Of a DNA stretch of 64,000 bases, positions 13,918 to 51,548 are shown one piece after another (the first letter of the stretch is position 1; the number at the start of each line of letters is the position of its first letter). A program made the position numbers and the translations under genes. The DNA comes from Moraxellaceae bacterium (GTDB lineage: Bacteria > Pseudomonadota > Gammaproteobacteria > Pseudomonadales > Moraxellaceae). The notes under the pieces are model-generated. The model was given only the letters and a program-made list of their open reading frames with translations, had not been told where the DNA came from and ran no database searches. The stretch is from the NCBI GenBank assembly GCA_020697295.1, contig JAJFBF010000005.1, forward strand, positions 13,994 through 77,993, written 5' to 3'.

Positions 13918-14738
13918 AGCGCCGCCACCTTTTTGCGCGTCTCAAGGAGTAGCTCCGTTACTTGCAGCTGGAATCCGAGTTTTTTGAGGGCAAAAGACGA
14001 CTCGACGACCTCTAGGCGTGTCCGATGCAGCGAAAGGTTGGTGCTAAGCCGATCCAGCAATTGTGTGCGTAGGCGCTGAATTTCAGCTTTCTTGTTGTCG
14101 GCATGACCCTCCAGCCAGACTGCAATCTGTGCTTTGAGCGGCACGAAGCCTGAAGCTTCGGACAGACGTTGCTTACCTTCGATCTTGCCGCGGACATACC
14201 GAGTGGAAGAGACCTCCATTATTGGAATGCTGAGTGAGCCCACCTGACGGGAAATAACCTGGAGCGTCTGCGTCAGCGCTCCTTCATCGACGTTGTCGAC
14301 GCAGCTGATGACAAGCAGTGCTCGGTCGGTTCGGCCGGCAGCAGCAAGGGCACGCAGAAAATCTGCTTCGCACTGGTCAAGTTCGCCGTCGACGGCGCTA
14401 TGAACGACCAACAGGGCATCCGCTCCCGTATATGCAACCTGGCGCGCAAGATGGTCATCATGCCCAGCCACGTCAGCGTCCAGCCCGGGTGTATCGATCC
14501 AGGTGATTCCATTGGATTCATATCGGCGCACCTCCGTGGTTTCACGCTTGTCAGATGCCTTGAAAACATCCTTGCCTATCAGGGCATTGAGAAGTGAGCT
14601 CTTGCCATGGTTGTACTTTCCAACTACGGCAATCCGTGGAACAGAGGCATCTTCCACAAGCTGACGCAGTTGATCTACCTGGTCGGCCTCGTCTGGTAAA
14701 AGGTCTTCTAGCTCACCATAGGGATCGGTCTGTCTCAT
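13914..14738 (-). CDS. small P-loop GTPase (dynamin/Era-like G domain)
   Basis: G1 VVGKYNHGKSSLLNALIG, G3 IDTPGLD. ATGA overlap with the upstream gene (14735-14738). Confidence 0.85.
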   Translation of the reverse strand: MRQTDPYGELEDLLPDEADQVDQLRQLVEDASVPRIAVVGKYNHGKSSLLNALIGKDVFKASDKRETTEVRRYESNGITWIDTPGLDADVAGHDDHLARQVAYTGADALLVVHSAVDGELDQCEADFLRALAAAGRTDRALLVISCVDNVDEGALTQTLQVISRQVGSLSIPIMEVSSTRYVRGKIEGKQRLSEASGFVPLKAQIAVWLEGHADNKKAEIQRLRTQLLDRLSTNLSLHRTRLEVVESSFALKKLGFQLQVTELLLETRKKVAAL

Positions 14739-18507: not shown

Positions 18508-20385
18508 CTACTCCGTATGGCGTCCCGGATACGGCCGCACCTCGTTTTCCATCTTGGGCGGGTCCGCATTAAAGGCTCGCGAGAAGTCGGCGATGCCCAG
18601 GCGCAGGAGCTGTCCCATCATCTCGAAATCAGACGCGATAATCGCGTTGAAGCGCCCCTTCAGCTGCTCCTGCTCCCAGCGCTTCGACCAGCCGCGGCGC
18701 AGCTCCATCGTGGCGATGCGCAGCTTGCCCCAGCGAATGCTCACGATATGGCACTCCCCGGCCTGGCATTCCGACGCATAACTGTCCACGCAGTGCCGCA
18801 TCTCCATGGCTTCTTCCATCAGCTCCGCTTCGTGCTCCAGGGTCAGGAAACGAAAATCCTGCCAGGCGTGCTCGCGCAGCGGAACACGCCAGCGATGCGC
18901 CACCGTACGCTTTGCCTTTGTCGGCCGGGGTCCCGGTGGCTGTGCCTGTAGCCCCTGCGCTTGTTGACGTTGCTGCTCTTGCTGCAGTTGCTGCAGGCGC
19001 GCGGCCTGCTCCCCGCGTTCGCGTTCCGCGCACATCCGTTCATGCCATTGCCGCGACTGCCGGAGCAGGGCCGGCACTTCTCCCTTGAAGGCCTGGGGCG
19101 GCAGCAGGGGGCTGCAGGCGCGGAACCAGTCGATCAGGTCGCTGAGGTCTTCGCGGTGCCGCGCCATGGCTTCCGGCGTGGCTGAATGCAGCAGGTGGCG
19201 GGCGATGGCGGTGAGCAGCAGGTCGGTTTTCTTGACCTGCTCCGGCGGTAGCTCGGCGCCGGGTACCACTCCATTGAGCACCCGCAGCGAGGCGCTGCGT
19301 CGTTGCAGGCGATACCACTGCTGGCGTTCGCCGCAAACCGGCGCTCGCAGGCCCGTGCGCAGGGCGGTGAGGCGGGAGGGAATGTCGCTGACGATCTCCG
19401 GCAACTGGTGGCGCCAGGCGCGGTAAAAGCGCGTGCAGGGGCCAAGCCGCGACAGCAGGAAGCCGAGTGCCGGCAGGAAGTCGGCCAGCCGTCCCTCGGC
19501 CTGCCAGTGGCCGAGCGTAAGGCCCAGGTCGCGCAACTGCGGCAGCGGGACCTGGTGCAACCGTGCCCACGCGTTGCGCGGCAGGCCCTGAGCGCGCAAG
19601 GCGGCGCGGACGTCGTCGATGCGCAACGAGCCGATAAGGCCCGCCTCGCGCAGGGGCAGCGCCAGCCACACCAGCTTGCGGGCGCGGCGCGGCCAGCGGC
19701 GCAAGGTCTCCCACTCGGCGAGCAGGCAGCCGATCTCCGCCGGCGTGGGGTGCGGCGTGCCGCGCCCGAGTTCGCGCAGGTAGCACTGCAGGAAACCGGA
19801 GGGATAGCCGATCCGACGCAACAGCAGTGCCTTCAGTAGCGGCCCTTCGCCTTCAAGGGTGCGTCGCACGACAGTGGCGAGGGTGCGTGGCAGCTCGTGG
19901 CGCTCGACGGGCCACAGATCCTCGAACCATGGCTGCAGCAACAGCCACTGTCCGGTCCATCCCCGCAGCAGTGGCCCCAGCGCCACGATCCACTCGGCAT
20001 TGTTGAGCGGCTCTTGCAGCTGCCGCTCCGGCTGCCAGTCGCCGGTTTGCCAATAGCCGATGGCCTGGCCCTGCGTATTGAGGCGCACCTGCAGCCGGCA
20101 ATCGCCAATCCGGATCGCGCGCTGATCGCCATTGTCCTGCACCTGCACCATGAGGCGCACCAGATGCAGCGAGAGTGCCGCGGCATCGAGGGGCACCGTC
20201 GCCGGATCGGAAAACGCCGACCCGGCCTGGGTCATCTCGGACCGGACCATTCTGGACAGCGCCATCGCCAGCTGGGCGGCAAGCGCCTGCTCCAGGTCAT
20301 CGGGCTCTGGCGTGTCAAGAAGCAGCGCGCGCAGCGACGCAATATCCGCGGGGTCACAGGCGGCGGGCTGGAAGGCTTTGCTCAT
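18508..20385 (-). CDS. PcfJ-like domain protein
   Basis: C-terminal core LEHEAELMEEAMEMRHCVDSYASECQAGECHIVSI resembles the PcfJ-like family signature (EG..M.HCV..Y) as I recall it. ATG at 20385. Confidence 0.75.
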   Translation of the reverse strand: MSKAFQPAACDPADIASLRALLLDTPEPDDLEQALAAQLAMALSRMVRSEMTQAGSAFSDPATVPLDAAALSLHLVRLMVQVQDNGDQRAIRIGDCRLQVRLNTQGQAIGYWQTGDWQPERQLQEPLNNAEWIVALGPLLRGWTGQWLLLQPWFEDLWPVERHELPRTLATVVRRTLEGEGPLLKALLLRRIGYPSGFLQCYLRELGRGTPHPTPAEIGCLLAEWETLRRWPRRARKLVWLALPLREAGLIGSLRIDDVRAALRAQGLPRNAWARLHQVPLPQLRDLGLTLGHWQAEGRLADFLPALGFLLSRLGPCTRFYRAWRHQLPEIVSDIPSRLTALRTGLRAPVCGERQQWYRLQRRSASLRVLNGVVPGAELPPEQVKKTDLLLTAIARHLLHSATPEAMARHREDLSDLIDWFRACSPLLPPQAFKGEVPALLRQSRQWHERMCAERERGEQAARLQQLQQEQQRQQAQGLQAQPPGPRPTKAKRTVAHRWRVPLREHAWQDFRFLTLEHEAELMEEAMEMRHCVDSYASECQAGECHIVSIRWGKLRIATMELRRGWSKRWEQEQLKGRFNAIIASDFEMMGQLLRLGIADFSRAFNADPPKMENEVRPYPGRHTE

Positions 20386-20406
20386 GTGCAATTTCGCCCG
20401 GCTGGC

Positions 20407-21201
20407 CTAGCACACGAACACATAAAGACCGGATGGCAGGGCATCGGTATTCGGCAGGGCAATCACCACCGCGCAATCAGCCTCGCAATGCTGGCTCAGG
20501 TGGTCGCCGACCTCGGTAAAGTCGGCCAGCGTGCAGGTCTCCGGCATGACCATCACGGCCCAGAGCGTGTGCCGTCCCCGAAAATCGTCCAGCTGCGACA
20601 GCATGGCGCGCATGCGCTCCGGGCCCTCCTGTCGCAACGGCGCCCACAGCAGGCACCCCTCGCCGGTCAGGTTGTTGCGCAGGTCGCCGTAGTCGATGCC
20701 GACCACGCCTTGGCACATCACGCTGCTCCAGATCACCTCGGCGGCGAGCAGTGGCGGCAGGGAGGGTGGGCACTTGCAAAGAAAACCCATCGCCGCGAGC
20801 AGGGCGGCCCGTTCTGCGGGCGGCAGCGACGGATCCTCGGGCATGAAGGCCATGACATCTCGCCCGCGGCTCTTGACGTGCGCGCCGATCGCCGTGGCCA
20901 GCGCACGAGACTCTGCAGACTCGCCGATGACCAGCAACAGCCACTCGGCCTCAGACATCATGGCGTCGATGGCCGCGCCATCTTCCGGAGAAAGCCCGGC
21001 GGCAGCGGCCGGCGGAAATACCGCTGGCACTGAATGAAGGCGGATCCCGGGAAGCTGGCCCTGTGGCCCGCCGCTGGCCGTCAGGGCCTGGTAGCAGCGG
21101 AGGAGTTCGACTGGGAAGTGGGTCGTTCTGGGCTCGTGGCGCAAAGGTGCGCAAATCACGAGGCGGACGAGGTCAACGGGCGAAAAGTCGGTATCTGGCA
21201 T
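20407..21201 (-). CDS. degenerate FtsZ/tubulin-like protein
   Basis: Colinear with FtsZ: LVRLVICAPLRHE / LLLVIGESAESRALATAIGAHVKSRGRDVMAFM / VVGIDYGDLRNNL (T7-like) / LWAVMVMPETCTLADFTEVGDHL...AVVIALPNTD...LYVFV. The glycine GTP loops are lost. AGGAG SD. Confidence 0.6.
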   Translation of the reverse strand: MPDTDFSPVDLVRLVICAPLRHEPRTTHFPVELLRCYQALTASGGPQGQLPGIRLHSVPAVFPPAAAAGLSPEDGAAIDAMMSEAEWLLLVIGESAESRALATAIGAHVKSRGRDVMAFMPEDPSLPPAERAALLAAMGFLCKCPPSLPPLLAAEVIWSSVMCQGVVGIDYGDLRNNLTGEGCLLWAPLRQEGPERMRAMLSQLDDFRGRHTLWAVMVMPETCTLADFTEVGDHLSQHCEADCAVVIALPNTDALPSGLYVFVC

Positions 21202-23128: not shown

Positions 23129-24058
23129 ATGACCACAGCAAGCCCAGCCAGGGATGCGCTCCAGGCCGAATTCCCGCTCCGCGCGCGCGGGGCGCTTTAC
23201 GGGCTGATCCTGGGCGACATCATCGGCGCCTATTTCGAATTCTCCTCCCGCGGGCGCAAGGAGCTTCCCACCCTGGGTGATCTGGCGGGGAAGACCAACG
23301 TCTTCGGCATCCGCTTTGGCTATACCGACGACAGCATCCTGGCACTGCTCGGCATGGAAAGCCTGGTGGACTGCGCGGGGCGCTGGGACACTGCCAGCCA
23401 GCGTGACCATGCCCGCCGCTACATGAACGGCGAGACCGCCTGGAGTCCGAATGGCCGCTGCTTCGATATCGGGATCTCTACGCTGCGCTCGCTGCGGGAT
23501 GGCGAATGGGCCGGCAAGCGAGACGCCCGCAGCGCTGGCAACGGCGTACTCATGAAGCACCTGCCGTTTGTGATTGGCCGTTGCCTGCATCCGGACCAGG
23601 AACCCGTGGAGTACTACCGGCAGGTCGCCGACCTAACGCATGGCTGTCCGAGTACGGTGACTACCGCAAGGGAAATGGGCCTGCTGCTGGAGCGCCTGCT
23701 GCAAGGCCTGCCCTGGAGCGATGCCCATGCGGGGCTGGACACGGCGATACGCCACGAGACACTTTCGGTCGAGCGGACCTACAGCGGCTTTTGCGAGGAT
23801 TCCTGGGTGCTGGCCCTGCAACTGGTGCAGCGTCGTTTCAAGGACGACCTGGACTGGACGCGTGGCATCCAGTGCATCATGGACCTGGGCGGTGATACCG
23901 ACACCAATGCCGCCATCTATGGTCAGCTATACGGGGCGCTGTTTCCGGCCGAGATCATCGCGCAGTACGAGGCCGTCCGCGCGCATGTCCACCGCGCGGA
24001 GGATATTGATGCGTTACTGGAGCGCTTGCTGGCGACGGGGGAAGGCGTCGCGGCATAA
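23129..24058 (+). CDS. ADP-ribosylglycohydrolase family protein
   Basis: LYGLILGDIIGAYFEF, GYTDDSILAL, LGGDTDTNAAIYGQLYGA are canonical ARH/DraG motifs. Confidence 0.85.
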   Translation: MTTASPARDALQAEFPLRARGALYGLILGDIIGAYFEFSSRGRKELPTLGDLAGKTNVFGIRFGYTDDSILALLGMESLVDCAGRWDTASQRDHARRYMNGETAWSPNGRCFDIGISTLRSLRDGEWAGKRDARSAGNGVLMKHLPFVIGRCLHPDQEPVEYYRQVADLTHGCPSTVTTAREMGLLLERLLQGLPWSDAHAGLDTAIRHETLSVERTYSGFCEDSWVLALQLVQRRFKDDLDWTRGIQCIMDLGGDTDTNAAIYGQLYGALFPAEIIAQYEAVRAHVHRAEDIDALLERLLATGEGVAA

Positions 24059-24595: not shown

Positions 24596-25849
24596 CTAGG
24601 AATAGCGCGCCAGCATGCCGCGCGCCGCATGATGCATGCGCTCGCGCAAATGCACGGGGCCGTCCACGCGCACGTTGGCGCCAAAGCCCAGCAGCCACCA
24701 CAGCAGCTGTTCGGTTTCGCGAAGCCTGGCCTGGATCCGGTGCTGGCCTGCGGCGATCGGCGTGATGACCTGCTTGTCCGCGAGCGGGCTCTCGGCCAGG
24801 TGCAGGCCCGCGCCCTCGAAGAACGTGACATCGAGATCAATCAGGCCGTGCTCGCCGGGGAAGTCCAGGCCCTGCTGTTCATGCACATAGCTATCGAGAT
24901 CGAAGCCGGGGATGGTGCGGCCCGCCTCGTCCTCCAGCAGCGTGGTTTTCTGGAAGCGGTGCAGGGCATAGAGACGCACGTCGTCATAGTCGAATACCGT
25001 GGCCACCAGGTAGGTGACGTGGCCGCGGATGACCAGTCCCAGCGGGTTGAACACATGGTCCTTGCGCAGGGTGCCGTCCTTGAGGCGGTAACTGCCCTGG
25101 AAGCGTGCATTGAGCGCCAGTGCGGAATAGACCACGTCGCGGATGTTGCGCGGGGTCACCGGGCTTTGCAGCGGCTGCGTGGGCGGCACCGCCAGGATCT
25201 TCTTTTGCCAGCTGCTCAGTTGCTGATGGCTGAGGACGCCGTTGAGGCGCTGCTCGGCCTGTTCGAACTGCGGCTTGAGGGCCTCCACCACGAGCGTCGG
25301 CAGCATCTGCACCAGATGCCGCTTCACCATGAGCAGGGTGAGGGCCTCGGCCTGGTTCATCGCAGGCGCCATGCGCTGGCGGGCATCGGTCGGCCAGGCC
25401 CAGCCATGGGGCTTGCTGTCATCGAAGCACTGGATGCCGAAGGCTTGGGAAAGCTCCTTGATGTTGCGCTCGATGGTGCGGCGATTCACCTTGTAGCCCT
25501 GTATTTCCATGCGCTGGTCGATCTGGCTGGTGGTGACCTTCTCGGGGTAGCGCGGAATCATCGCCAGCATGTCGATATAGCGGAGGGCCAGGCTGATGCC
25601 GTCGGCTTTCGGGCTGGTTTTGGCGGCGGCTTTGGCCGGCGCGGGCCGGCGCGTGGCCGTTGCATTGGCCGGCGTATTGGCGGGCGCAGCGGGGCGTTTT
25701 TTTGCAGCGGTCGCGCTGGCGGCGGCCTTTGCCGGCGTGCCGGGGGCGGAGGCTTTTTTTGCACTGCCCCTGGAGGGGCGGGAGGCGGGTGCGACGGGCT
25801 GGGTGGGCATCGGTTTCTTGTTTTTTGGGGGAGCCATCGGGCCGGTCAT
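24596..25849 (-). CDS. WYL-domain transcriptional regulator with Ala/Lys/Pro-rich N-terminal tail
   Basis: HTH (TTSQIDQRMEIQGYKVNRRTIERNIKEL), WYL core (RKDHVFNPLGLVIRGHVTYLVATVFDYDDVRLYALHRF) and an 85-aa tail (AKKASAPGTPAKAAA...AKAAAKTSPK). Confidence 0.8.
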   Translation of the reverse strand: MTGPMAPPKNKKPMPTQPVAPASRPSRGSAKKASAPGTPAKAAASATAAKKRPAAPANTPANATATRRPAPAKAAAKTSPKADGISLALRYIDMLAMIPRYPEKVTTSQIDQRMEIQGYKVNRRTIERNIKELSQAFGIQCFDDSKPHGWAWPTDARQRMAPAMNQAEALTLLMVKRHLVQMLPTLVVEALKPQFEQAEQRLNGVLSHQQLSSWQKKILAVPPTQPLQSPVTPRNIRDVVYSALALNARFQGSYRLKDGTLRKDHVFNPLGLVIRGHVTYLVATVFDYDDVRLYALHRFQKTTLLEDEAGRTIPGFDLDSYVHEQQGLDFPGEHGLIDLDVTFFEGAGLHLAESPLADKQVITPIAAGQHRIQARLRETEQLLWWLLGFGANVRVDGPVHLRERMHHAARGMLARYS

Positions 25850-27065: not shown

Positions 27066-27917
27066 ATGGGAGAAATATCCGGGATGGTGATGTTCACGAC
27101 ACTGGACGCGTCCGGGCGCGGTCCTTTCGGGCCGGCGGCGTGTTTTGACTTTCATGACGGATTGAACGTCATCGTTGGCGGCAACGGCACCGGCAAGACC
27201 ACGGTGTTTCAATTGCTGCGGAAATGCGCCGCCCACGAGCTTCTGCCGATTACTGCGGTGGAAGAGCTGCAGGAGCAACAGCTCCCGGATCCCGTCCCTG
27301 TAGGTCGGGATTCATCCCGACAAAAAAATGAAACCGCCAACAATACCCCCGCGCCCGCCGACCTGCTCTCCAGCCTCGTATTCCTGACTGATGGAGATCG
27401 CATGCGTTGGGAGGGCGGCAGCGCGTCCGGACTTTGCTTGCTTGCGACCTGGCCGGGCATCGACCGTCCTCGCCTGGAAGCCGACCTGACCGCCTGGGTC
27501 CGACGCTTGTTCGGCGCCGAGGGAAGCTGGGCCACGCGCGCCGGCGCGCTGCAGGTCACGCTGGCGCCCGGGGGTGGTCTTGAGCTTTCCGTGGCGGGCG
27601 AACGCGTCTGCCACACCGTCTTCGCGGCGGGAGAGCAGACGTTGCTGCACCTGGCGCTGGTGGCCGCGTTGCGTGCGCAGCTGGATCCTGCGCATCACTG
27701 GCCCCTGGTCGTCGACAGCCCCTTCGGATCGCTCGATAGCTCCTTTCGCGCCTGCGTCGCCACGGTGCTGCCGGAGCTGGCGAAGCAGGTGATTGTGTTG
27801 CTGCCCCCTCGGGAGCTGCCGGAGGCTGGCTGGCAGCCGGATTACGAGCTTGTCTATGAAGGCCAACCCCAGGGCGTCACTCGCGTAGTCGCGATTGCGC
27901 CCGGGGCCGGCGCCTAG
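27066..27917 (+). CDS. minimal ABC/SMC-head-like P-loop ATPase (paralog A)
   Basis: Walker A VIVGGNGTGKTTVF, signature-like FAAGEQTLL, Walker B PLVVDSPFGSLD. The true start may be ATG at 27084 or 27090. Carries an in-frame REP-like insert at 27297-27325. Confidence 0.65.
   Translation: MGEISGMVMFTTLDASGRGPFGPAACFDFHDGLNVIVGGNGTGKTTVFQLLRKCAAHELLPITAVEELQEQQLPDPVPVGRDSSRQKNETANNTPAPADLLSSLVFLTDGDRMRWEGGSASGLCLLATWPGIDRPRLEADLTAWVRRLFGAEGSWATRAGALQVTLAPGGGLELSVAGERVCHTVFAAGEQTLLHLALVAALRAQLDPAHHWPLVVDSPFGSLDSSFRACVATVLPELAKQVIVLLPPRELPEAGWQPDYELVYEGQPQGVTRVVAIAPGAGA
27297..27325. repeat. REP-like palindromic element, copy 2 (inside a CDS)
   Basis: cctgtagGTCGGGATTCATCCCGACaaaa, identical to copy 1. 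Translated in frame as VGRDSSRQ within 27066-27917. Confidence 0.7.
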
Positions 27918-28435
27918 TCTTCCGCGAGCGGGATCTCTGCAAATACCGCTATCTCCATGCTAATCACCGCATGGCGGCACTCGAGGCGGTCCAGTGCGGT
28001 AGTGGCGCGGAGGCTGGAGCGGACCGATTGCGGCACCAGATGCAGCGTGAGCAGCGCCTGGTACACGCCCTCGACCGAGTCAGCCTGCAGCGGCTGGCTT
28101 TCGCTCGCGCCGATGCCCTGGGCCAGCTGCGTCATCAGCGGGCGCAGGGTGTCCTCGGGACAGTCCTCATCGGCGAGCTTGAGCGGATCCTGGCGACGGT
28201 AGATTCCGGCGGGCATCTTGAGCCAGGTGGCGGCTTTGCCTGCCAGGTAGGCGAAGGCGGAAGGGGCGTTATTGTCCAGGGGAGCCTCCCGGCGCCCGTC
28301 GGGCAAGAAGCCACGGGCGCATGGTCCGGTTGATGTTGGCGTCAGCATGCGCTGTCGTTGCGACAGGTTATGTCGTATCGCCGCGAGAGGATGTACTGGG
28401 TCCGGCGAGCTGCTGGAAGCAGTTGCACCCGTCAC
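27914..28435 (-). CDS. hypothetical protein
   Basis: 173-aa ORF, convergent with the ATPase and sharing CTAG stop overlap. No motif. Confidence 0.4.
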   Translation of the reverse strand: MTGATASSSSPDPVHPLAAIRHNLSQRQRMLTPTSTGPCARGFLPDGRREAPLDNNAPSAFAYLAGKAATWLKMPAGIYRRQDPLKLADEDCPEDTLRPLMTQLAQGIGASESQPLQADSVEGVYQALLTLHLVPQSVRSSLRATTALDRLECRHAVISMEIAVFAEIPLAED

Positions 28436-28454
28436 CCGTAATTGAAAAAGGAAA

Positions 28455-28604
28455 ATGAAGATGAGCGGATTTTACCCGGCGCCCCCGTATTTCTTTGTCT
28501 GCAAGGACTGCGGCCACCGCTACCGGCGCGACATCAAGCTGGCCTTGTTCTGCCCGCAGTGCAAATCGTTCCGGGTGGCGTCGGATCCTTCGGTTCTGAA
28601 GTGA
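28455..28604 (+). CDS. small zinc-ribbon protein (49 aa, below the ORF-track cutoff)
   Basis: Hand translation: MKMSGFYPAPPYFFVCKDCGHRYRRDIKLALFCPQCKSFRVASDPSVLK. Two CxxC pairs, AAAGGAAA SD. Confidence 0.45.
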   Translation: MKMSGFYPAPPYFFVCKDCGHRYRRDIKLALFCPQCKSFRVASDPSVLK

Positions 28605-28628
28605 GCGACGGCGATTCCAATGGGCCGG

Positions 28629-29222
28629 CTAGCTCACGCGGTAGCCACCATTTTCCGCCGCCATCTGATTGAAGAGCGCCCACTTCCGGATCCAGGCAGC
28701 CGCTGCCTCCGGCGCCATGCCGCTGCGGACATAAGGAGCGTGCAGGGCGCTCTCCTGCCGCGCCAGCCCTGCCAGAAGGCCGCTGGCAATCCATTGGCAC
28801 TCCTCCGGCCAGACATACCACGATCGCTGCGAACTGAACTTGCACGACAGCACCTTGCCGGGCTGATCGCTGCGGCGCGTCAGGATGGCGTTGGTGGCGA
28901 GCGCCCATGCATCAAAAAGACGCTCCTCCCGGCTCGTCATCTGGTCCGTGCAGTCGTGGCCGATGAGGCCTTCGGCGCCCTCCACGCAGAATACGGCGCC
29001 GAGTGTGTCGACCCGCTTCTGCGAAATGCCCTTGGGCGGCCAGGCCGGAAAGTCTTCGGGGACGGCCGTGGTATCCATGACGGCGGCGGCCACCATCACC
29101 GCCACCATGTCGTCCATCGCGTGGTTGGAGCAGAGGAAGCGGTCTTCGTATCCCGGTAGTGGCGGGACATAGCCGGCAACCACATCGTCGGGCGGGAACG
29201 CCATCTGCATGTCATAGCCCAT
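28629..29222 (-). CDS. hypothetical protein downstream of DUF2779
   Basis: 197-aa ORF, 39 nt after the DUF2779 gene on the same strand. Trp/Cys-containing globular composition. Confidence 0.55.
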   Translation of the reverse strand: MGYDMQMAFPPDDVVAGYVPPLPGYEDRFLCSNHAMDDMVAVMVAAAVMDTTAVPEDFPAWPPKGISQKRVDTLGAVFCVEGAEGLIGHDCTDQMTSREERLFDAWALATNAILTRRSDQPGKVLSCKFSSQRSWYVWPEECQWIASGLLAGLARQESALHAPYVRSGMAPEAAAAWIRKWALFNQMAAENGGYRVS

Positions 29223-29261
29223 GTTGCCGGCTCCTGGGGGGCGGGGAGAGCAGTGCCGCTC

Positions 29262-30761
29262 TCAGGCCGGGGACGGGGAGCGGGCCGGACTCCGGCGTGA
29301 TGCCTTGCGCCGCCCTTCAAAGAACTTCGCCAGCTCCACCATCGCCTGCGTGTCGCGCCCGCAATATTCCACCAGCGCTGCGCGCACCTGCAGCGCCCTT
29401 GCCGGATCCGTTTCCGGCGACAGCAGCTCCAGAAAGGCCTCCTGCGCCATGCCGCCGTCACCGACCTCCAGTTCGCTGTAATCCAGCTCGGGCGCCACCG
29501 TGGGTAGCACCGCCTTGATCGACCAGGAGCCGCGCATGTCCGGGTGGTAATAGTGGTCTCGCGCAATCACCAGCAGGTCCACCATGCGGTTGATGATGGA
29601 CTGCAATGCCTCCGCGTGTTCGGGGAAGGCCACCGCCATTTCCTGCAGCCGGCTGCGCTCGAAGGACGCGTTCCAGACCAGCACGCTGCCGCGCGGCCCG
29701 ATCGCCGCCAGCAATGTCTCCACGAATTCGCGGCGCGGATCCTCAAGGCCTTCGGCCAGCCAGCCGCGCTCGCGCAAGGTGCCGGTGTGCGACTCCACAT
29801 GACAGGACCACTGGAAGGGCACCTGCTGGTAGGGGCGCGTGCCGGCCCAGATGGGCGCGGCAAAACTGATCGTCTCGAAGTCCATGTAGTAGCGCGGCCA
29901 GGCCAGCGTACTCATGGCCGCGGCGACTTCCTTGCGCAGGACAGGCTTGCCCTTTTGCAGCGAGTCCCAGACCAGCAGGTGGCTGTCGTTGCGCAGGCGA
30001 TCGCGCGGCAGCTCGCGGATGTCGTCGTAGCCCTCGGCGCGCAGGGCGTCGGCCTGCTTGCCGATGCGCGGCAACTCCTCCACGGGATAGGCCTCCGGAT
30101 CCGCCGCCGGATGGCAGTAGCCAATGAAGGGGCATTCATAGGGATCAGTGCACTGCGCGCCCGTTTCGACCCGCGGCTCCTTGCCTTTGAGCGTCTTTTG
30201 CGCCGCCTTGATCCAGCCCGGCACCTCGGGCTGCAGGTCGCGGGCCTGCGAGGTGACGTCCACCGTGGTGAACAGGCCCTGGTAGTCCTCATTGCCGGGG
30301 TACACGAACTGGTTGTTGATGTGCACGACCGAGATCCGCTTGACCTTGACGCCGCAGGCCTCCGCCACGTGCGCCTGGATGGCCACGTCCTGCAGATGGT
30401 AGGACTTCACGCTGGTGGAGGACTTCACCTCGGCGAGGTGATAGCCGCCGCGCTCTGGCAGCAGCAGGTCATTGCGCACCAGCACGCTGTCGGCGTTGAA
30501 GGTGGCCTCGAACACCGGCACCCGTTTGGGTTTGGCCAGCAGCGCCTCCGTGTCCTTCAATGCCTGGGACAGACTGCCGCCATCGATCAGGATGCCCCCC
30601 GGGTGCAGTTGCCGGGCAATGTCACCCACGACGTTGCCGGCATCCATGCGGGACTGCTGGGAAGCGTCCACCACGGTCAGTTCCGGCTTGTTCATCTGCA
30701 GCCACAGGCGCTTGGGGCACTGCAGGTGGGCAATCAGGCGAGACTTGGACAGACCGGCCAT
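29262..30761 (-). CDS. DUF2779-family protein (PD-(D/E)XK / Cas4-like nuclease fold)
   Basis: N-terminus LSKSRLIAHLQCPKRLWL and YMDFETISFAAPIWAGTRPYQQVPFQWSCHV match the DUF2779 family pattern as I recall it. Confidence 0.8.
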   Translation of the reverse strand: MAGLSKSRLIAHLQCPKRLWLQMNKPELTVVDASQQSRMDAGNVVGDIARQLHPGGILIDGGSLSQALKDTEALLAKPKRVPVFEATFNADSVLVRNDLLLPERGGYHLAEVKSSTSVKSYHLQDVAIQAHVAEACGVKVKRISVVHINNQFVYPGNEDYQGLFTTVDVTSQARDLQPEVPGWIKAAQKTLKGKEPRVETGAQCTDPYECPFIGYCHPAADPEAYPVEELPRIGKQADALRAEGYDDIRELPRDRLRNDSHLLVWDSLQKGKPVLRKEVAAAMSTLAWPRYYMDFETISFAAPIWAGTRPYQQVPFQWSCHVESHTGTLRERGWLAEGLEDPRREFVETLLAAIGPRGSVLVWNASFERSRLQEMAVAFPEHAEALQSIINRMVDLLVIARDHYYHPDMRGSWSIKAVLPTVAPELDYSELEVGDGGMAQEAFLELLSPETDPARALQVRAALVEYCGRDTQAMVELAKFFEGRRKASRRSPARSPSPA

Positions 30762-30914
30762 GGTCGGCTCCTTATTGTTGTTTTTCGGGGCTTGGTGGTA
30801 GCGGGCACTCCACGCTACAAGTTAAAAGTAATACAACACTGCGACAACATAAGTCGCGATCAGCGCGGCTGAAGAGCTGGAATGGCCGTTTAACGGCCAG
30901 ACAGGGGAGGGCGC

Positions 30915-31289
30915 ATGACGCCAGCGCCAACATTGAGCGTGGGGATCTTCTGGTGGGTGGAGGGGGCGCTGCTGCTCGACCAGGCGCCGCTGGCGCAGGC
31001 CGAGCCTTATGGGCCGGCCCTGCAGCATGGCGGACACTGGGAATTCCATGAGGGGCTGACGCCCCGCACCTTGCGCGAGGAGCGCTTCCAGCAGCAGCCC
31101 TATGACGTGAACCCCCGCGGCCGGGTGGTGTATTTCACGGCCCAGGGCGTAGCCGTGGTGTATATCGACCGCTGCCTGAATGCCCCGGCCATCCGGGCGG
31201 TGATTACGGAGGCCTTTGGCCTGGCCGGGGAGATCCGGTTCGCCCTGGATCCGCATTATCGCTGCCCCGGCTGCGGTAGCCTGTACTAG
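30915..31289 (+). CDS. hypothetical small protein
   Basis: 124 aa with GGGGAGGG SD. C-terminal CPGC. Confidence 0.5.
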   Translation: MTPAPTLSVGIFWWVEGALLLDQAPLAQAEPYGPALQHGGHWEFHEGLTPRTLREERFQQQPYDVNPRGRVVYFTAQGVAVVYIDRCLNAPAIRAVITEAFGLAGEIRFALDPHYRCPGCGSLY

Positions 31290-31400
31290 CAGCGGAGCTG
31301 TAAAGATCATTTAGGCGGATGATGCGCGACTAAGGGCTTCCTTTGCCCGCCGCTTGTCGTGCGGCGCCATTTGCACCGCAATTCCCTGCAAGAGTCTTTT

Positions 31401-32162
31401 TCAGAGATATTCCGTGGTGCCGGGGGCTACCACCGTATATCCATGGACGTCCTCGGCCTTCATGCAGTGGCTGACCGCAATATCCGGCACCAGGGTACTT
31501 GGCCTCCCGATGACGATCACCTGTCGTGAGATGGCCCGCAGGAGTTGCGACAGGTTATCGAGGAGAAGGCTGTCCATCGCCCCCAATTGATCATCGATGA
31601 CAAACGGAAAAATCTGTCCGCCCGGGATCCTCCTGCGAAGGGCCCAATTCAGGGCCAGGTAGATGGCACAGCGTTCAGTATGGGACGAGAGGACTCCGGT
31701 CACGGCGTTCCCGGTGACCGCATTGGTCAGTTCGAGCTGACCGGCCTCGGATACCGCGTACCGAAACTCAGGGAAGGAGTCAGCACCCCCATAGGCACCG
31801 GACAAGACAGCGTTCCTGTCGGAGAGAACCTGCTCGAAGGCAAACTGGAAGTCACTGGCCAGTTGCTCACGGTCAATCCGCAGGGGTTGGATGAGGTCGG
31901 CAAGGGGCGGGTATGGCCGCCAGAACATCGGAAGATCGCAATGATCGGACCAGAACATCAGCGGTTCGGGAGGGGCGAGACGGGCAGCTGTGTCCTCGGC
32001 CGCCAGGAAGGCCAAAGCGGAAGCGCGTAGTTGCTCGAACAGCCGGGTCTTCCCGGACAGATGTTCGCCGCTGACCTGGTTGACCCCGTTCTTGAAGGCA
32101 ATGCGGGCGCCGGGCTGGAAGGGCCACACGGCTGACAAGTCCAGTTCATAAAATGAAAACAT
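31401..32162 (-). CDS. minimal ABC/SMC-head-like P-loop ATPase (paralog B)
   Basis: Walker A VSGEHLSGKTRLF, signature-like LSSHTERCAIYL, Walker B PFVIDDQLGAMD. Same layout as 27066-27917. Confidence 0.65.
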   Translation of the reverse strand: MFSFYELDLSAVWPFQPGARIAFKNGVNQVSGEHLSGKTRLFEQLRASALAFLAAEDTAARLAPPEPLMFWSDHCDLPMFWRPYPPLADLIQPLRIDREQLASDFQFAFEQVLSDRNAVLSGAYGGADSFPEFRYAVSEAGQLELTNAVTGNAVTGVLSSHTERCAIYLALNWALRRRIPGGQIFPFVIDDQLGAMDSLLLDNLSQLLRAISRQVIVIGRPSTLVPDIAVSHCMKAEDVHGYTVVAPGTTEYL

Positions 32163-32201
32163 GCATGCCGCTCCTCTGGCCGGGAGTTTCAGTACGCCGC
32201 T

Positions 32202-32756
32202 TCAGGTGCCCGGTCGCTCACGCAATAGCGTTTCCTGCAGAGCCAGCTGCACTTTTTTGAGTGCCTCATTCATGCTCACCTTGCCTTCGCAGTAGTCGGA
32301 GCAATTGACGATGGATAATCGTCTGGCGGGATCGGTCTTGTCGGAAACCCATGACCGCAGGCTCTCCAGATCCTCAAGGGCAGGTAACCAGCCGCTGTCA
32401 AAGGAGAACGGCAGGATGACGTGAAGATGGCAATCAGCGAGCTCTCCCGCATTGGCCATCTCACGCAGCCTGCGGCCCCCTTTTCCTCCCAGGGCCGCAA
32501 TGACATGAGATCGGGCAGGGATGCCAAACGGTTCGGGCGTGACATTTATCTCGAATTCGGCGCCGTCCAGATTGGCGCGGCTAAGCGCTGCATTCGTGTA
32601 AAGGTCAGGCAGGGAGAACTCGTTGAAGATCCAGCGCCGTATTTCCTTGGCTTCAAGCTGGGGTCGTATGGCCGAATCAGCCCAGATGCGAGCCAGGGTG
32701 GCCGATCCATAGGTTCCGATGGCGACCACTGCGGTAGCGGGGGAAAGCGGAGTCAT
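32202..32756 (-). CDS. small Rossmann-like protein with glycine loop (FtsZ-N-like or SLOG-like)
   Basis: VVAIGTYGSATLARI ... HVIAALGGKGGRRLREMANAGELADCHLHVILPFSFDSG ... RLSIVNCSDY. Colinear with the FtsZ N-domain (GGGTGTG region, KPFxFEG), and also reminiscent of LOG/SLOG PGGxGTxxE. Confidence 0.55.
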   Translation of the reverse strand: MTPLSPATAVVAIGTYGSATLARIWADSAIRPQLEAKEIRRWIFNEFSLPDLYTNAALSRANLDGAEFEINVTPEPFGIPARSHVIAALGGKGGRRLREMANAGELADCHLHVILPFSFDSGWLPALEDLESLRSWVSDKTDPARRLSIVNCSDYCEGKVSMNEALKKVQLALQETLLRERPGT

Positions 32757-33319: not shown

Positions 33320-33673
33320 ATGACCCTGTCCATAAATGCGCTGCTGCGGCGGCGTGCCCTTTTTTATGCCATGGATGCCCAGGAGCATACGGCGGAAACG
33401 ATTTATTGGGCCGTACATGCTTTTCTTGAGCATCCTGTGGCGGAGCGCCCTGCCGGGAGTGCTCCGCCGCTTCCTGTACCGCCCGGCTCCCGTACTTGCG
33501 GCGAGCGCGAGCCGGTGGAGCTGGATGAGCCCTTGCTGGTCCGGCTTCCGGTCGTGGCGGAGGCGCTGGGCATTTCTGCGGAGTCAGTGGTGGATCTCGC
33601 GGTGGAGCGGGCCTGCCCGCCGCTGGGCATGGCGCTCGACCCCCAGTGGTTCATTGCTGGATTGGGGCCGTGA
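33320..33673 (+). CDS. questionable small ORF upstream of the hipA-like gene
   Basis: 117-aa ORF. The C-terminal LLVRLPVVAEALGISAESVVDLAVE could be a DNA-binding helix pair. Coding status is uncertain. Confidence 0.25.
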   Translation: MTLSINALLRRRALFYAMDAQEHTAETIYWAVHAFLEHPVAERPAGSAPPLPVPPGSRTCGEREPVELDEPLLVRLPVVAEALGISAESVVDLAVERACPPLGMALDPQWFIAGLGP

Positions 33674-33815
33674 TTCACGAGCACGAAGCCGATCGTCGCT
33701 CAGCCAGGCATTGGAGCAGGGGCACGAGCGGCTATTGGTGCAGCCGGCATAAATCTATTCAGGTTATCTGGGTGCCAATATCTCAACGCATTGAAAATAA
33801 AGCTCTTATATATTT

Positions 33816-33848
33816 AATATCCATTAAATATCTATTCATATAGTATTC
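33816..33848 (+). promoter_or_regulatory. three tandem 11-bp units (candidate operator) 5 nt upstream of the hipA-like ATG
   Basis: AATATCCATTA AATATCTATTC ATATAGTATTC. The same unit occurs at 53369-53390. Confidence 0.45.
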
Positions 33849-33853
33849 AGATC

Positions 33854-35194
33854 ATGTCTGATACCAGCCCCGATCTCCTGCATGCCCTCGCCACCGGCGC
33901 CCGCAACGGCGCCGAGCTGCAGGCGCGCCTGGGCGTCAGCCAGCCCACGGTTTCCCGCCTGGTGCGGGCCGCTGGCAACGAGGTGATCGTGATCGGGCGT
34001 GCCCGCGCCACCCACTATGCCCGGCGCCGCCGGATCCCCGAAGTTGGCGATGACCTGCCGCTCTACCGCATCGACCCCCAGGGCGACGTCCACCGCTTCG
34101 GGCATCTCTATCCGCTGGTGGCCGGGGAGTTCGCCTGTGCCTTCGAGGGCCAGGCGTCGGTGCTGCATCCGGGATTGCCGTGGTTCCTGCAGGACATGCG
34201 GCCACAGGGCTTCATGGGCCGCGCCTTTGCCCGGCATTTCGCGACCTCCCTCAATCTCCCCGGCCGTCTGCCGGACTGGGATGACGACGCCCATCTCATC
34301 GCCATGGCGCTGTACGGCGAGGACCTCGCCGGCAACCTGATCGTCGGCGACGCCTCCCTCGAGCGCTTCTATCGGCGGGCCCTCGCCGGGGATGCCATTC
34401 CCGAGGCGGGGCGGGCCGCGGCCTATCCACGGCTGGCCGAAGCCTTTCTCGACGAGCAGCCCGGTTCGAGCGCGGGCGGCGAACAACCCAAGTTCACCGC
34501 CCGACTGGCGACGCCTGGCGGGGGCATTCGTTCCGTCATCGTGAAATTCAGCCCCACCGGCAATGACGCCGCCGCTGTGCGGTGGCGGGATCTGCTGCGT
34601 GCCGAGCAGGCGGCGCTGGCCTGGCTGCGCGAGCAGGGTATTCCTGCGGCCGCGAGCCAGCTGGTCGAGGCGGGCGGGCGCCTGTTCCTGGAGGTCGAGC
34701 GCTTCGATCGGGTGGGAGAGCGGGGGCGGCGCGGACTGCTGTCGCTGGCGGCAATCGATGACCATCACTTCGGGCTGCGCGGGAACTGGTCGGCAATGGC
34801 CGCGCGGCTGCAGCAGCAGCGCATGGTCACGCCCGGCGAGGCCAGGACCATGCGCCTGCTGGATGTGTTCGGGGCCCTGATTGCCAACAGCGATCGTCAC
34901 TTCGGCAATCTCTCGCTGTTCGTGGACGACTTCACGCATGCCCTGGCGCCGGCCTATGACTTGTTGCCGATGGCCTGCCGGCCGACGGATCAGGGCGAGG
35001 TGCGCGCGCCGGACTTCCTCCCGCCGCTGCCCTCCGCCGCCAACGCGGACGTGTGGGACGAGGCCCTGGCGCTCGCGCGCGAATACTGGCGCCGGCTCAC
35101 GGATCTTCCGGCGTTGTCCGCCGACTTTCGCGCCATTGCCGCCGGGAATGCCCGGCGTCTCGCCAGCCTGGAGGCGATCCGGCCGCCGCAGTGA
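33854..35194 (+). CDS. HipA-family Ser/Thr kinase with fused N-terminal HTH (YjjJ/HipH-like)
   Basis: N-terminus NGAELQARLGVSQPTVSRLV (HTH). GGEQPKF and LIANSDRHFGNLSLF are HipA catalytic-core motifs. Confidence 0.85.
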   Translation: MSDTSPDLLHALATGARNGAELQARLGVSQPTVSRLVRAAGNEVIVIGRARATHYARRRRIPEVGDDLPLYRIDPQGDVHRFGHLYPLVAGEFACAFEGQASVLHPGLPWFLQDMRPQGFMGRAFARHFATSLNLPGRLPDWDDDAHLIAMALYGEDLAGNLIVGDASLERFYRRALAGDAIPEAGRAAAYPRLAEAFLDEQPGSSAGGEQPKFTARLATPGGGIRSVIVKFSPTGNDAAAVRWRDLLRAEQAALAWLREQGIPAAASQLVEAGGRLFLEVERFDRVGERGRRGLLSLAAIDDHHFGLRGNWSAMAARLQQQRMVTPGEARTMRLLDVFGALIANSDRHFGNLSLFVDDFTHALAPAYDLLPMACRPTDQGEVRAPDFLPPLPSAANADVWDEALALAREYWRRLTDLPALSADFRAIAAGNARRLASLEAIRPPQ

Positions 35195-45256: not shown

Positions 45257-47023
45257 TCATTCGTCTTCCGGCCCTGATTCCGAGCAATCCATGAGATTTG
45301 ACAGCGCGTCCCGCAGCGACTGCTGCCGCTGCAAGTCGCCCAAGGAAAATGATCGGCGGGCGCCCGCCGGCGAAGCACTGTCGGCAAGGCGGACAAAACG
45401 GAGCGAGGCGCCCGGATCCGGGCAATAGGGGACGCAGGCGGCCACCTCCGGGCTATCAGGATGCAAGTACACCATCAGCTCCTGCAGCACGGTCTCGCCC
45501 TCGCGGGCAGCGAAGCTGTCGGCATCACGCAGCCGGTGGAGCAGCTCGTCGGTCATGGCCAAGCGTTCCCAGCGCGCGATGCGTTCCGGCAAGTGCAGCT
45601 GAATGGACGGGTCGGGCATCGCCTGAGTGATAAGCGACGTCGCTTCATCAAAGCCTGATGGCTCAAACTCATCTTCCGGATGGGGTGGTTGGACAGCGTC
45701 CAGATACGTCCAGTAGGCGGCGAAGGGCATCCTGTCCTGTGGGCACAAATAGAAGTAGGGCGGCTCGAAGGGGCCCTCGGGCATGCAGCCCTCCAGCCAG
45801 GCCAAGATGATGTCGATGGTCGCCTGCCGGGGTGGCTGATTGGCATAGGTCCTTGCCTCCCGCAGGATCCAGCCCGGCAGCGATTGCTCGAGCAGTACGG
45901 TGCAGCGCTCGGGCCAGGCCATGATATAGGCGGCCATCTCGCCGCCCTGAAGGCTGGCTTGGTAGCGGGCGATGCAGTTCTGCATGTAGATGCCTTCGAA
46001 TACCAGCCGGCCAATGGTCCGGATTGGCGTCAGCCAGGGCACGGCCGGAAGTGCAGGAGATGGAAAGTCGGCAGCGTCGGCCTGCGCGTCTGGCAAGACT
46101 CCCCTGGCCATGCGTGACTTGAATCGCCGCTCCATCCGGCGGAGTTGCCTCTCAAGCCATCTCACGTTCGGAGCCGCCTTCACGAGTCCCTTCAAGCCGC
46201 CCTTGCCCTGGAGCTGGCACTGGTAATCGAGCCGCTCAAGCGTCAGCACGAAAGTGTTCGGCCGTAATTTCTCGCCGGTCTTGAGGCAGCGATGGAAGAG
46301 AGGGGCGAGATCCTGTCCCCTGAGGTAGGTGCGGTCCAGGGCGAGCGCAAACGCCTGAAGGGTCACGAGCCGCTTCCGAAAAGGCCGGGATGACTGGAGG
46401 AAAGCGGGCAACAGCGGAGCGTAATTACGCATCTTGCCGTGGTCGAGCAATTCCAGGCGGTCAGCAAAGCGGCCGGGGAAGCAGGCGGCGAAATCCAGCA
46501 TGAGCCTGCCGTATTTGCGGGCGTCCAGTGGCGCAGGCCGAGCGTCGGCATCGTACCAGAACAGTTCCCGGCGAGGCCGTGACAGGAGTTCGCGTACGTG
46601 CAGCTGCGCCGCCGCCAGGCCCTTCAGCCTAAGCAGTTGCAGCCACTCCGCCACGTGTTGCCGGAAGCACGAAGGAAATGCCAGCAGTCCCTCCAGCTCT
46701 GGATGATGGCGCAGCAGGAACAGCACCTGAAGCTGGTCGAGATCGTCGCGACGCAGCCGTTCCAGCAGTCCGGCCGGAAATTGCGACCGCCACGCAGTCA
46801 GGTGGCTTGGGAGGCTCGCTTCCTCCAGATCCCTGATGCCCAGCGTCCATAGCCCGGCGTGCTGCCGGACGAGTGCATCCTGTCCCTCCACTGTGGCGTG
46901 CTCATCATTTTCCGCCGGGTACAGCCCGGCGTTCCAGCTGCCGAGGAGTGGTGGCAGCCGGATGCCCCGGCATGAGCTGACGTTGAAGCGGAGGCAGGCA
47001 TTGGTCGTGCTGGTCAGGTGCAC
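45257..47023 (-). CDS. PcfJ-like domain protein with C-terminal extension
   Basis: Core RLVFEGIYMQNCIARYQASLQGGEMAAYIM. GTG at 47023 is preceded by AAGGAG. The ORF track start at 47119 (TTG) is less likely. Confidence 0.7.
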   Translation of the reverse strand: MHLTSTTNACLRFNVSSCRGIRLPPLLGSWNAGLYPAENDEHATVEGQDALVRQHAGLWTLGIRDLEEASLPSHLTAWRSQFPAGLLERLRRDDLDQLQVLFLLRHHPELEGLLAFPSCFRQHVAEWLQLLRLKGLAAAQLHVRELLSRPRRELFWYDADARPAPLDARKYGRLMLDFAACFPGRFADRLELLDHGKMRNYAPLLPAFLQSSRPFRKRLVTLQAFALALDRTYLRGQDLAPLFHRCLKTGEKLRPNTFVLTLERLDYQCQLQGKGGLKGLVKAAPNVRWLERQLRRMERRFKSRMARGVLPDAQADAADFPSPALPAVPWLTPIRTIGRLVFEGIYMQNCIARYQASLQGGEMAAYIMAWPERCTVLLEQSLPGWILREARTYANQPPRQATIDIILAWLEGCMPEGPFEPPYFYLCPQDRMPFAAYWTYLDAVQPPHPEDEFEPSGFDEATSLITQAMPDPSIQLHLPERIARWERLAMTDELLHRLRDADSFAAREGETVLQELMVYLHPDSPEVAACVPYCPDPGASLRFVRLADSASPAGARRSFSLGDLQRQQSLRDALSNLMDCSESGPEDE

Positions 47024-47111
47024 GTGGGCTCCTTCTTGCTCTGGCCTCGGTGCCGGCCTGAGTGGCCGGCACGGTGGAATGCGATGGCGTTGGTCATCGG
47101 ATGCCTCCAGA

Positions 47112-49280: not shown

Positions 49281-49449
49281 GGCGGTCTCCTCTTGTTCTT
49301 GGGAGACCATGGTGCTCGCGTATTACGACAGGATGTGTCGCACCCGGTTGGGCCGGCGCTCGGGCTATGGGCCTCGGAACCTGGCGGCGCTTGCCCTGGC
49401 CTTGACCGGACTTTAGGGTTGTCGGCACCAGGCACCAGAAGGGCTCGAC

Positions 49450-51324: not shown

Positions 51325-51548
51325 GGCGATCCTCCGTTGTTGAGTTCACGCTAACCCGGATTCCGGATTCGTCAACGGCCTCTAACCCGCCGGCTCACTG
51401 CTCAGCAACGACGCGGGTTTCAGAGAGCTTCAGATGGAGGTTGGCGGATGATGGTCATACCACTTATTGAATTCAGTGAGACAGGTTCTGTCGCATGTGG
51501 CGCGTAGAATCCGCCGGCCCACCTGGATTACAGAAACGGAGCCTTCCC

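Follow-up and report, generated by a model that had tools for sequence, protein, structure and literature searches.

Two adjacent genes on a contig of a Moraxellaceae bacterium (JAJFBF010000005.1, assembly GCA_020697295.1) raise the question of whether they form a conflict system of their own or belong to a larger set of genes. The window analysed here is the 64,000-nucleotide stretch at positions 13,994–77,993 of the contig, and its coordinates are counted from its first letter. A first-pass annotation made from the sequence alone had described the pair as a two-gene cassette, in which an FtsZ-N-like or SLOG-like nucleotide-binding protein accompanies a minimal ABC/SMC-head ATPase. The genes concerned, together with a paralogue of the second, are as follows.

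32,202–32,756, minus strand: FtsZN, 184 amino acids (aa), predicted stand-alone FtsZ/tubulin-type GTPase domain, S1 to H7
31,401–32,162, minus strand: 253-aa ATPase, coiled-coil-less Rad50/SMC/DndD-type head
27,066–27,917, plus strand: 283-aa SMC-head-type ATPase, paralogue of the 253-aa protein

Both open reading frames (ORFs) of the pair are present, with all of the motifs that had been quoted for them: VVAIGTYGSATLARI, HVIAALGGKGG...HLHVILPFSFDSG and RLSIVNCSDY in the first, and GEHLSGKT, SSHTER and FVIDDQLGAMD in the second. FtsZN belongs to a family of stand-alone FtsZ/tubulin-superfamily GTPase domains that is very rare and had not been annotated before, and it forms part of a plastic module of several genes located in defence islands. 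The 253-aa ATPase is a lineage-specific accessory or an insertion in the slot 3' of FtsZN, and not its defining partner. The fold had been called correctly, the SLOG option was wrong and the cassette had been drawn around the wrong partner. On balance we favour a reading in which FtsZN acts as a stand-alone GTPase-domain switch within the module.

Fold and nucleotide pocket of FtsZN

None of the models in Pfam, NCBIfam, PHROG and PADLOC matches FtsZN. When 5.8 billion clusters were searched from word seeds, FtsZN itself was the only hit, so that an exhaustive HMMER search was required to detect its relatives; seven were found among 1.84 billion cluster representatives, and a profile search added two (P0010 and P0011). 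These proteins are 181–200 aa long and share 26–59% identity with the window protein. The family amounts to about ten sequence clusters in roughly 15 billion proteins, none of them in cultured reference genomes, and in the literature we found no description of a family like FtsZN or of a host-encoded tubulin-like defence protein.

An AlphaFold2 model built from an alignment of eight family members has a predicted local distance difference test (pLDDT) score of 90.5 and a predicted template-modelling (pTM) score of 0.87. In a Foldseek comparison with the PDB the first 15 matches are all FtsZ, CetZ or TubZ (E values 1.6e-5 to 3.5e-3, probability 1.00, query TM scores 0.58–0.65), and among viral structures the best matches are phage tubulin, FtsZ and PhuZ. 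The family profile picks up Aquifex FtsZ (PDB entry 2r6r), weakly (E = 0.35), with T1 and the T4-H4-S5-T5 segment in register, while hhalign pairs G91...PFxFD of FtsZN with G109...PFNFEG of Escherichia coli FtsZ. Judged from this model, FtsZN very probably adopts the FtsZ/tubulin-type GTPase-domain fold, and the earlier proposal that it corresponds to the N-terminal GTPase domain of FtsZ alone is borne out. Matches to the Rubisco small subunit in a single-sequence PDB search were rejected as chance.

The eight-sequence alignment contains 17 invariant columns, among them the following residues, which line the pocket on the model.

T1: G14 and Y16
T2: E46 and S48 (ExS)
T4: L89, G90 and G91 (LGG)
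T5: P116, F119 and D120 (PFxFD)

The loop after S1, GxG[ST]YG[AS], resembles the canonical T1 form GGGGxN without being the same, and HMMER pairs it with GVGGGG of 2r6r. Strand S6 ends in an Asp or Asn at T6 (VNC/VID), and together with PFxFD at T5 this conforms to the FtsZ/tubulin pattern for the two loops. The tubulin T4 signature [SAG]GGTG[SAT]G is absent: FtsZN keeps LGG followed by [TSKE][GHNA][GAS], in a loop that is one to three residues shorter than GGGTGTG, and GGTGA is partly kept in P0004 and P0008. The modelled pocket suggests that FtsZN probably retains nucleotide binding.

The chain terminates just past H7 (helix 162–179 of 184 residues) and contains neither the T7 loop (NxDxxD) nor H8 nor the C-terminal domain, and H3 and T3 are absent as well. 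In FtsZ and tubulin, the T7 loop and C-terminal domain serve polymerisation and the activation of GTP hydrolysis in the adjoining subunit, so that FtsZN, ending where it does, lacks the parts for both.

FtsZ and tubulin are polymer-forming cytoskeletal GTPases with roles in division, plasmid segregation and phage-nucleus spindles. FtsZ, CetZ, TubZ and PhuZ (PF00091) share with FtsZN the fold order S1-T1-H1, S2-T2, S4-T4-H4, S5-T5, S6-T6 and H7. Compared with FtsZ, the spacing of the glycine loops is equal, while PFxFEG at T5 is PFxFD in FtsZN and the H7 motif NDVL is NEAL. Unlike all four, FtsZN is confined to 181–200 aa, has LGGxG at T4, lacks a C-terminal tail in addition to the parts named above, and lies in defence islands rather than in operons for division, plasmid segregation or phage spindles.

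Divergent prokaryotic FtsZ-like families that stand outside division, FtsZl1 and FtsZl2, have been described previously (Makarova & Koonin 2010, PMC2875224). FtsZl1 proteins are large, with an FtsZ-like domain, a coiled coil and an alpha-helical C-terminal domain; they lack a recognisable T6-H7 region or canonical C-terminal domain, may not polymerise, share operons with VWA, OmpA-like and kinase genes, and are linked to membrane remodelling (PMC2875224). FtsZl2 has all T loops and a C-terminal region of about 300 aa (PMC2875224). FtsZN differs from both in being a single domain with entirely different neighbours. It is a new minimal family inside a known superfamily, and the module around it is unnamed in the libraries and literature that were searched.

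Neighbourhoods of FtsZN and its module partners

The genes for FtsZN and the 253-aa ATPase lie on a common strand with a gap of 39 nt. A Shine–Dalgarno-like AAGGAGAGG stands upstream of the ATG of FtsZN and GAGGAG 8 nt ahead of the ATPase start, and no terminator-like site was found on their strand between the two. Promoter and terminator scans gave results at chance level, and a repeat scan around the pair found no flanking repeats of a kind that would suggest a cassette. Both are genuine genes, and independent gene callers place them on two other contigs (JGI 3300044648 and Logan SRR15168755). Their GC content at third codon positions (GC3) is 0.65 and 0.72, compared with 0.79–0.88 for the neighbours.

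The DNA around the FtsZN relatives was recovered and all loci (L numbers below) were compared with the window. The ATPase follows FtsZN in one of the nine other context classes. This is L010 (Logan ERR1352959), which carries the closest relative (52–59% identity) in the order FtsZN–ATPase homologue. At L010 44–920, however, a frameshift breaks FtsZN in two, and the ATPase homologue (Walker A SDPSAGKT) ends after 56 aa, a damage that reflects either decay or an assembly error. The other loci are arranged as follows.

L005, L006, L007, L008, L009, L011, L017/18, L023, L024/26: gene for a 47–49-aa zinc-ribbon protein (ZnR) immediately 3' of FtsZN, 63–79% identical to the window copy
L017/18, L024/26, L005: FtsZN, then ZnR, then P604 (576–617 aa)
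L011: P604, then FtsZN, then ZnR
L008, L011, L017/18, L024: convergent WYL–DUF2779 operon next
L003/L004: NERD-UvrD helicase directly downstream of FtsZN

Counted by context class, ZnR is directly downstream in seven, P604 adjacent in five and the WYL–DUF2779 operon adjacent in four. The recurrent neighbours of FtsZN are thus ZnR, a PcfJ-domain protein of 576–620 aa and the WYL–DUF2779 operon, often with a second PcfJ-like protein, a NERD-UvrD helicase and a double-AAA+ ATPase close by. All of the conserved partners occur in the window, but scattered, with WYL–DUF2779 within 8 kb of FtsZN. The GC content of the FtsZN-bearing loci or hosts spans 41–63%, so that the association is more than the synteny of a single clade. 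In all likelihood the pair is not the conserved unit, as the ATPase follows FtsZN solely in the window and in the decayed L010. The first-pass annotation had itself named two contrary outcomes, non-conservation of the pair and an unrelated Rossmann enzyme in a metabolic neighbourhood; the former was found and the latter was not.

The copies of the module genes in the window are listed here.

28,455–28,604, plus strand: ZnR, 49-aa zinc-ribbon protein (CxxC...CxxC), weak zinc-ribbon Pfam matches
29,262–30,761, minus strand: DUF2779 protein (Pfam DUF2779, E = 3.7e-46; PADLOC Cas4, E = 6e-7)
24,596–25,849, minus strand: WYL-WCX transcription regulator (Pfam WYL and WCX)
45,257–47,119, minus strand: P604, 620-aa PcfJ-domain protein, start codon uncertain
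18,508–20,391, minus strand: 627-aa PcfJ-like protein (Pfam PcfJ, E = 1.2e-8), homologues in L004, L011 and L024
15,413–17,323, minus strand: NERD and UvrD-type helicase (Pfam NERD and UvrD_C_2; PADLOC RTasNERD-Hel and C3a187)
47,112–49,310, minus strand: 732-aa double-AAA+ ATPase (Pfam AAA, E = 6.5e-46) with an IetA-like second domain

Following PMC3985635 and PMC13621843, the DUF2779 protein of the window is interpreted as a Cas4-like PD-(D/E)XK nuclease joined to an exonuclease domain of the RNase H-like 3'-5' type. The copies that adjoin FtsZN in L008, L011, L017/18 and L024 are 65–68% identical to that of the window, the L011 copy being at 68%. WYL copies (33–36% identity) adjoin DUF2779 in the same four loci and on a Rhodoferax plasmid, where the DUF2779–WYL operon lies among McrBC-like, PLD and helicase genes. 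In the literature we found neither a link between WYL–DUF2779 and FtsZ-type, zinc-ribbon mini-protein or PcfJ-domain proteins nor anything specific on PcfJ function or DUF2779 systems.

P604 is 28–31% identical over its full length to the 576–617-aa products adjoining FtsZN in L003, L004, L005, L011, L017/18 and L024/26. It has no match in Pfam, and its profile has none in the PDB. Residues 352–443 match an annotated PcfJ-domain protein, and the motif EGxYMxNCIAxY pairs, weakly, with the PcfJ region of the 18,508–20,391 product. In the family alignment (A5) the central motif extends to a PcfJ-like EGxYMxNCIAxY...AAF/Y..WPER.TVLL...DAR, and the family further has a variable region of acidic character and, at the C-terminus, a conserved block YxHPD...DPxNS. 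In L024 a MuF_C-domain protein (12,545–14,608) directly follows P604. The gene for the AAA+ ATPase overlaps the start of P604 by 8 nt, and its product is 48% identical to a 707-aa protein of L011; the NERD helicase is 36–39% identical to its counterparts in L004 and L011. No family of PADLOC-DB v2 is matched by FtsZN, ZnR, P604, the 627-aa PcfJ-like protein or the A6 proteins described below.

ZnR is highly conserved and has a wider distribution than FtsZN; further genes for it lie at L029 4035–4175, L030 10,001–10,147 and L031 10,001–10,144. In Halomonas maura and Zobellella denitrificans ZnR is preceded by a 119–125-aa glycine-zipper/transmembrane-like protein, and in a Vibrio metagenome-assembled genome (MAG) it adjoins a WYL regulator.

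Over its whole length, the 253-aa protein can be aligned with the product of 27,066–27,917 at 25% identity (pairwise E = 4e-10), confirming the paralogy noted earlier, and the two share the Walker A, signature-helix, Walker B and D-loop blocks. Walker A is GEHLSGKT (residues 32–39) in the 253-aa protein and GGNGTGKT in the paralogue, both of the form GxxxxGK[ST]. The Walker B/D-loop FPFVIDDQLGAMD pairs with PLVVDSPFGSLD of the paralogue and with the C-terminal block of DndD and PbeC, as expected for a Walker B of the form hhhhD[ED] with its D-loop. The signature LSSHTER departs from LSGGQ/E through replacement of both glycines (FAAGEQ in the paralogue), and no evident H-loop histidine is present. 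Walker A and the signature region are only about 120 residues apart, which leaves no space for a coiled-coil insertion, and the model has short helices and strands only.

No relative of the 253-aa protein was found in the search of 5.8 billion protein clusters, and it has no Pfam match. Its sub-threshold database matches are to the C-terminal blocks of DndD and PbeC and the N-terminus of GajA, and it scores 12 bits against TIGR03185 (cut-off 245.85). The paralogue matches Pfam AAA_23 (29.7 bits, cut-off 27), PbeC (E = 1.2e-12) and the DndD model TIGR03185 (E = 1.6e-7). The AlphaFold model of the 253-aa protein, made from two sequences, is poor (pLDDT 48) and is read for fold class and nothing finer; its 15 best Foldseek matches are without exception heads of Rad50, SMC, cohesin or SbcC, and Septu PtuA and Lamassu come lower down. 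In agreement with the first-pass annotation, the protein is fairly described as a minimal SMC/Rad50-type head ATPase without a coiled coil, of uncertain catalytic competence.

The Rad50/SMC/DndD/PbeC heads of Dnd, Pbe, Lamassu (LmuB) and Septu (PtuA) share with the 253- and 283-aa proteins a Walker A, a signature helix and a Walker B/D-loop of the DSPxGxLD type. Compared with those heads, the two proteins contain no coiled-coil insertion, reach half the size at most and are degenerate in the signature and H-loop. Their TIGR03185 scores are 12 and 30 bits against 246, far below the cut-offs of the family models, and no partner genes of Dnd, Pbe, Lamassu or Septu are adjacent to them.

The segment between the two inverted paralogous ATPase genes (27,918–31,400) carries ZnR, p197 and DUF2779. 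Its orientation relative to FtsZN is opposite to that in L008 and L011, which is consistent with a segment inversion in the lineage of the window.

A6 proteins and the proposed mechanism

A second set of genes, termed A6, encodes short FtsZ-like proteins.

50,030–50,929, minus strand: A6, 299 aa; T7 (VDFxD-type, IDFED in this copy) and C-terminal domain kept, T1 and T4 glycine loops lost
20,407–21,201, minus strand: A6, 264 aa, just upstream of the PcfJ-like gene 18,508–20,391; 34–37% identical to the 50,030–50,929 product
L003 1037–1903 and L004 3128–3997: A6, 288–289 aa
L008 903–1721, minus strand: A6, 272 aa

The A6 profile matches FtsZ in 14 of its 16 PDB hits, the best being 1ofu (E = 3.3e-8) aligned to FtsZ residues 201–299, and hhalign against E. 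coli FtsZ gives a probability of 91% (E = 9.4e-7). The matched region, residues ∼194–304, stretches from the end of H7 across the T7 loop and H8 to the C-terminal domain, and both T7 aspartates (VDFxD) are invariant in A6, where the 299-aa protein has them as D204 and D207. The N-terminal half is collinear with S4-H4-S5, and its T1 and T4 glycine loops are gone. A single-sequence PDB search with the 272-aa protein returned FtsZ chains only, via the C-terminal half; this protein has no similarity to P604 or FtsZN. No A6 protein matches a Pfam family. A6 lies in the same cluster as FtsZN in L003/L004 and is present in two copies in the window, and in L008, L009 and L023 the 272-aa gene is convergent to FtsZN and ZnR. 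A6 is a second undescribed family, whose parts are complementary to those of FtsZN: T7 without a pocket in the one, a pocket without T7 in the other.

We propose that FtsZN would bind guanine nucleotide and serve as a switch or adaptor subunit incapable of self-activation or polymerisation. The catalytic T7 aspartates would then be donated in trans, the most plausible donors being the A6 proteins of the same islands, and the nucleotide state of the resulting capped, non-polymerising heterodimer would gate the DNA-directed effectors of the module. With WYL as the regulator, the module would act through its DUF2779 nuclease, NERD helicase and AAA+ ATPase; the SMC-head ATPase that the lineage of the window has gained 3' of FtsZN may be an extra effector or adaptor. 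Alternatively, a partner could read the nucleotide state of FtsZN, for which ZnR and P604 are candidates as its tightest neighbours.

The heterodimer with T7 supplied in trans by A6 is a tentative idea that we consider rather improbable as it stands. Much the same doubt attaches to the more general proposal that the complementary halves act as a single-interface GTPase switch, or as end-cappers of host or phage filaments, in control of the WYL-regulated nuclease/helicase/PcfJ module. The logic resembles that of the alpha/beta-tubulin heterodimer, with two diverged members whose complementary defects suggest one productive interface; unlike alpha- and beta-tubulin, FtsZN and A6 are paired by us purely by inference, they are not always adjacent and no polymer is expected.

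Several points weigh against our reading. By sequence, membership of the FtsZ/tubulin superfamily is sub-threshold: no family member matches PF00091, one reaches Tubulin_2 at E = 0.16, and the PDB profile match is the weak one to 2r6r. T4 is cut down to LGG[TSKE]x, and neither H3 nor the T3 loop is present, so that GTP binding is predicted only. No FtsZN relative was found in GTDB representative genomes, PLSDB plasmids or IMG/VR viral contigs, PLSDB having no relatives of A6 or of the 253-aa ATPase either, and the rarity of the family limits the comparative power. ZnR also occurs without FtsZN in H. maura, Z. denitrificans and the Vibrio MAG and is therefore the more promiscuous of the two. 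The sampled parts of L011, L017/18 and L024 yielded no A6 gene, and the A6 genes of the window lie 11 and 17 kb from FtsZN, so that the idea of T7 in trans rests on three of about ten context classes. A6 also has a degenerate N-terminal half of its own and thus does not represent a literal gene split. Since this half has no detectable similarity to FtsZN, we do not claim an origin by splitting of one gene; as A6 is moreover distant or missing, the functional pairing is put forward as a hypothesis and not as a finding. Finally, whether the module has a defence or conflict role is an even call.

Other explanations have to be set against these. FtsZN and the 253-aa ATPase could form a self-contained sensor–effector conflict system in which the small protein senses and the SMC head acts. 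The single strand and short gap, the separate ribosome-binding sites with no terminator between them, the GC3 of both genes below that of their neighbours, the defence-island setting and the gene order kept in L010, the closest relative, are all in keeping with this. However, the ATPase is absent 3' of FtsZN in L003–L009, L011, L017/18, L023 and L024/26, the L010 pair is frameshifted and cut short, and the ATPase has no relatives in the clusters searched and is degenerate at its signature and H-loop, which makes such a system unlikely. The L010 damage, the degenerate signature and the low GC3 could be taken to mean that both ORFs are decaying remnants, a truncated ftsZ-like pseudogene next to a dead ATPase. 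This we consider very improbable: more than ten FtsZN relatives at 26–59% identity keep the 181–200-aa length, the ends and the pocket residues, the model of FtsZN is compact and confident, and both ORFs of the window are intact with ribosome-binding sites.

The two glycine-rich loops and the Rossmannoid order of FtsZN would also fit a SLOG/LOG-type sensor of nucleotide-derived signals, which the first-pass annotation had held to be equally compatible, and two phage YspA SLOG proteins do appear in the viral Foldseek list, at ranks 6 and 32. Their TM scores are 0.33–0.34, compared with 0.6 for the tubulins, and no LOG or SLOG protein is among the top 50 PDB matches. The motif PGGxGTxxE is absent, its T and E being missing from the consensus LGGxGAxRL, and family scans of the window found no nucleotide cyclase or generator in the neighbourhood; a SLOG-type sensor is scarcely credible. 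In another scenario FtsZN and A6 would poison filament ends, capping either host FtsZ, with a block of division as a damage or infection checkpoint or in abortive infection under WYL control, or a phage PhuZ/TubZ spindle. The half-interfaces are indeed complementary, as FtsZN has a GTP-bearing top face and no bottom and A6 a T7-bearing bottom face and a dead top; the C-terminal domain of A6 is closest to gammaproteobacterial FtsZ (1ofu), and phage tubulins are among the structural matches of FtsZN. Moreover, WYL regulators include regulators of DNA damage and defence, such as DriD of Caulobacter, which drives a division inhibitor. On the other hand, FtsZN is only ∼15% identical to FtsZ, its members are 26–36% identical to one another although host FtsZ is highly conserved, and its invariant residues lie in the pocket and not on an obvious interface. 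Capping therefore seems improbable, about as much so as the self-contained pair.

If the reading as complementary halves were true, a cytoskeletal GTPase fold would have been repurposed as an immune switch. The presence of FtsZN beside A6 in Azaca/Eleos islands would then add to the known roles of the superfamily that of a non-polymerising switch or cap, in immunity or in the biology of mobile elements. FtsZN, ZnR, the PcfJ-domain proteins, WYL–DUF2779, the NERD helicase and the AAA+ ATPase make up a recurrent unnamed module that is absent from PADLOC and Pfam.

Other genes of the island

As a defence island that harbours Azaca and Eleos genes, the window agrees with the conflict-type setting suggested earlier for the pair. 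Scans of it for Rfam families and tRNAs gave no hits. Its further features are the following.

1169–4384, minus strand: ZacC of a complete Azaca system (PADLOC E = 0)
4342–6144, minus strand: ZacB of Azaca (E = 3e-166)
6141–7343, minus strand: ZacA/DUF6361 of Azaca (E = 3e-108)
10,319–11,875, 11,859–13,601 and 13,914–14,738, minus strand: three dynamin-like GTPase genes, Eleos-type
23,129–24,058, plus strand: ADP-ribosylglycohydrolase
33,320–35,194, plus strand: HipA-like kinase, 446 aa, with an N-terminal MarR/helix-turn-helix-like segment
41,672–43,009, minus strand: MBL/RMMBL-fold hydrolase
49,450–49,926, plus strand: 158-aa ORF with the HExxH-like motif FHELVHVAQW, between the AAA+ ATPase and A6 genes
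51,495–52,136, plus strand: DSP-PTPase ('Swiss Army Knife' phosphatase domain)
62,147–62,809, plus strand: UDG-superfamily glycosylase

The first dynamin-like gene, which is the one of the three compared with PADLOC, matches LeoA/LeoBC of Eleos, and the product of the middle one has a C-terminal glycine-zipper segment. The 158-aa product may, from its motif, be a small metallopeptidase. The HipA-like kinase is preceded by a 117-aa ORF without a family match and by an AT-rich stretch (∼33,750–33,850), and 33,320–35,194 may be a variant of a HipBA-type toxin–antitoxin system.

Toxin–antitoxin pairs and an IS605/IS3 element are found nearby in related islands, and SbcCD and an SNF2-like helicase lie upstream in L011 (3097–7727); the related islands appear to be mobile and mosaic.

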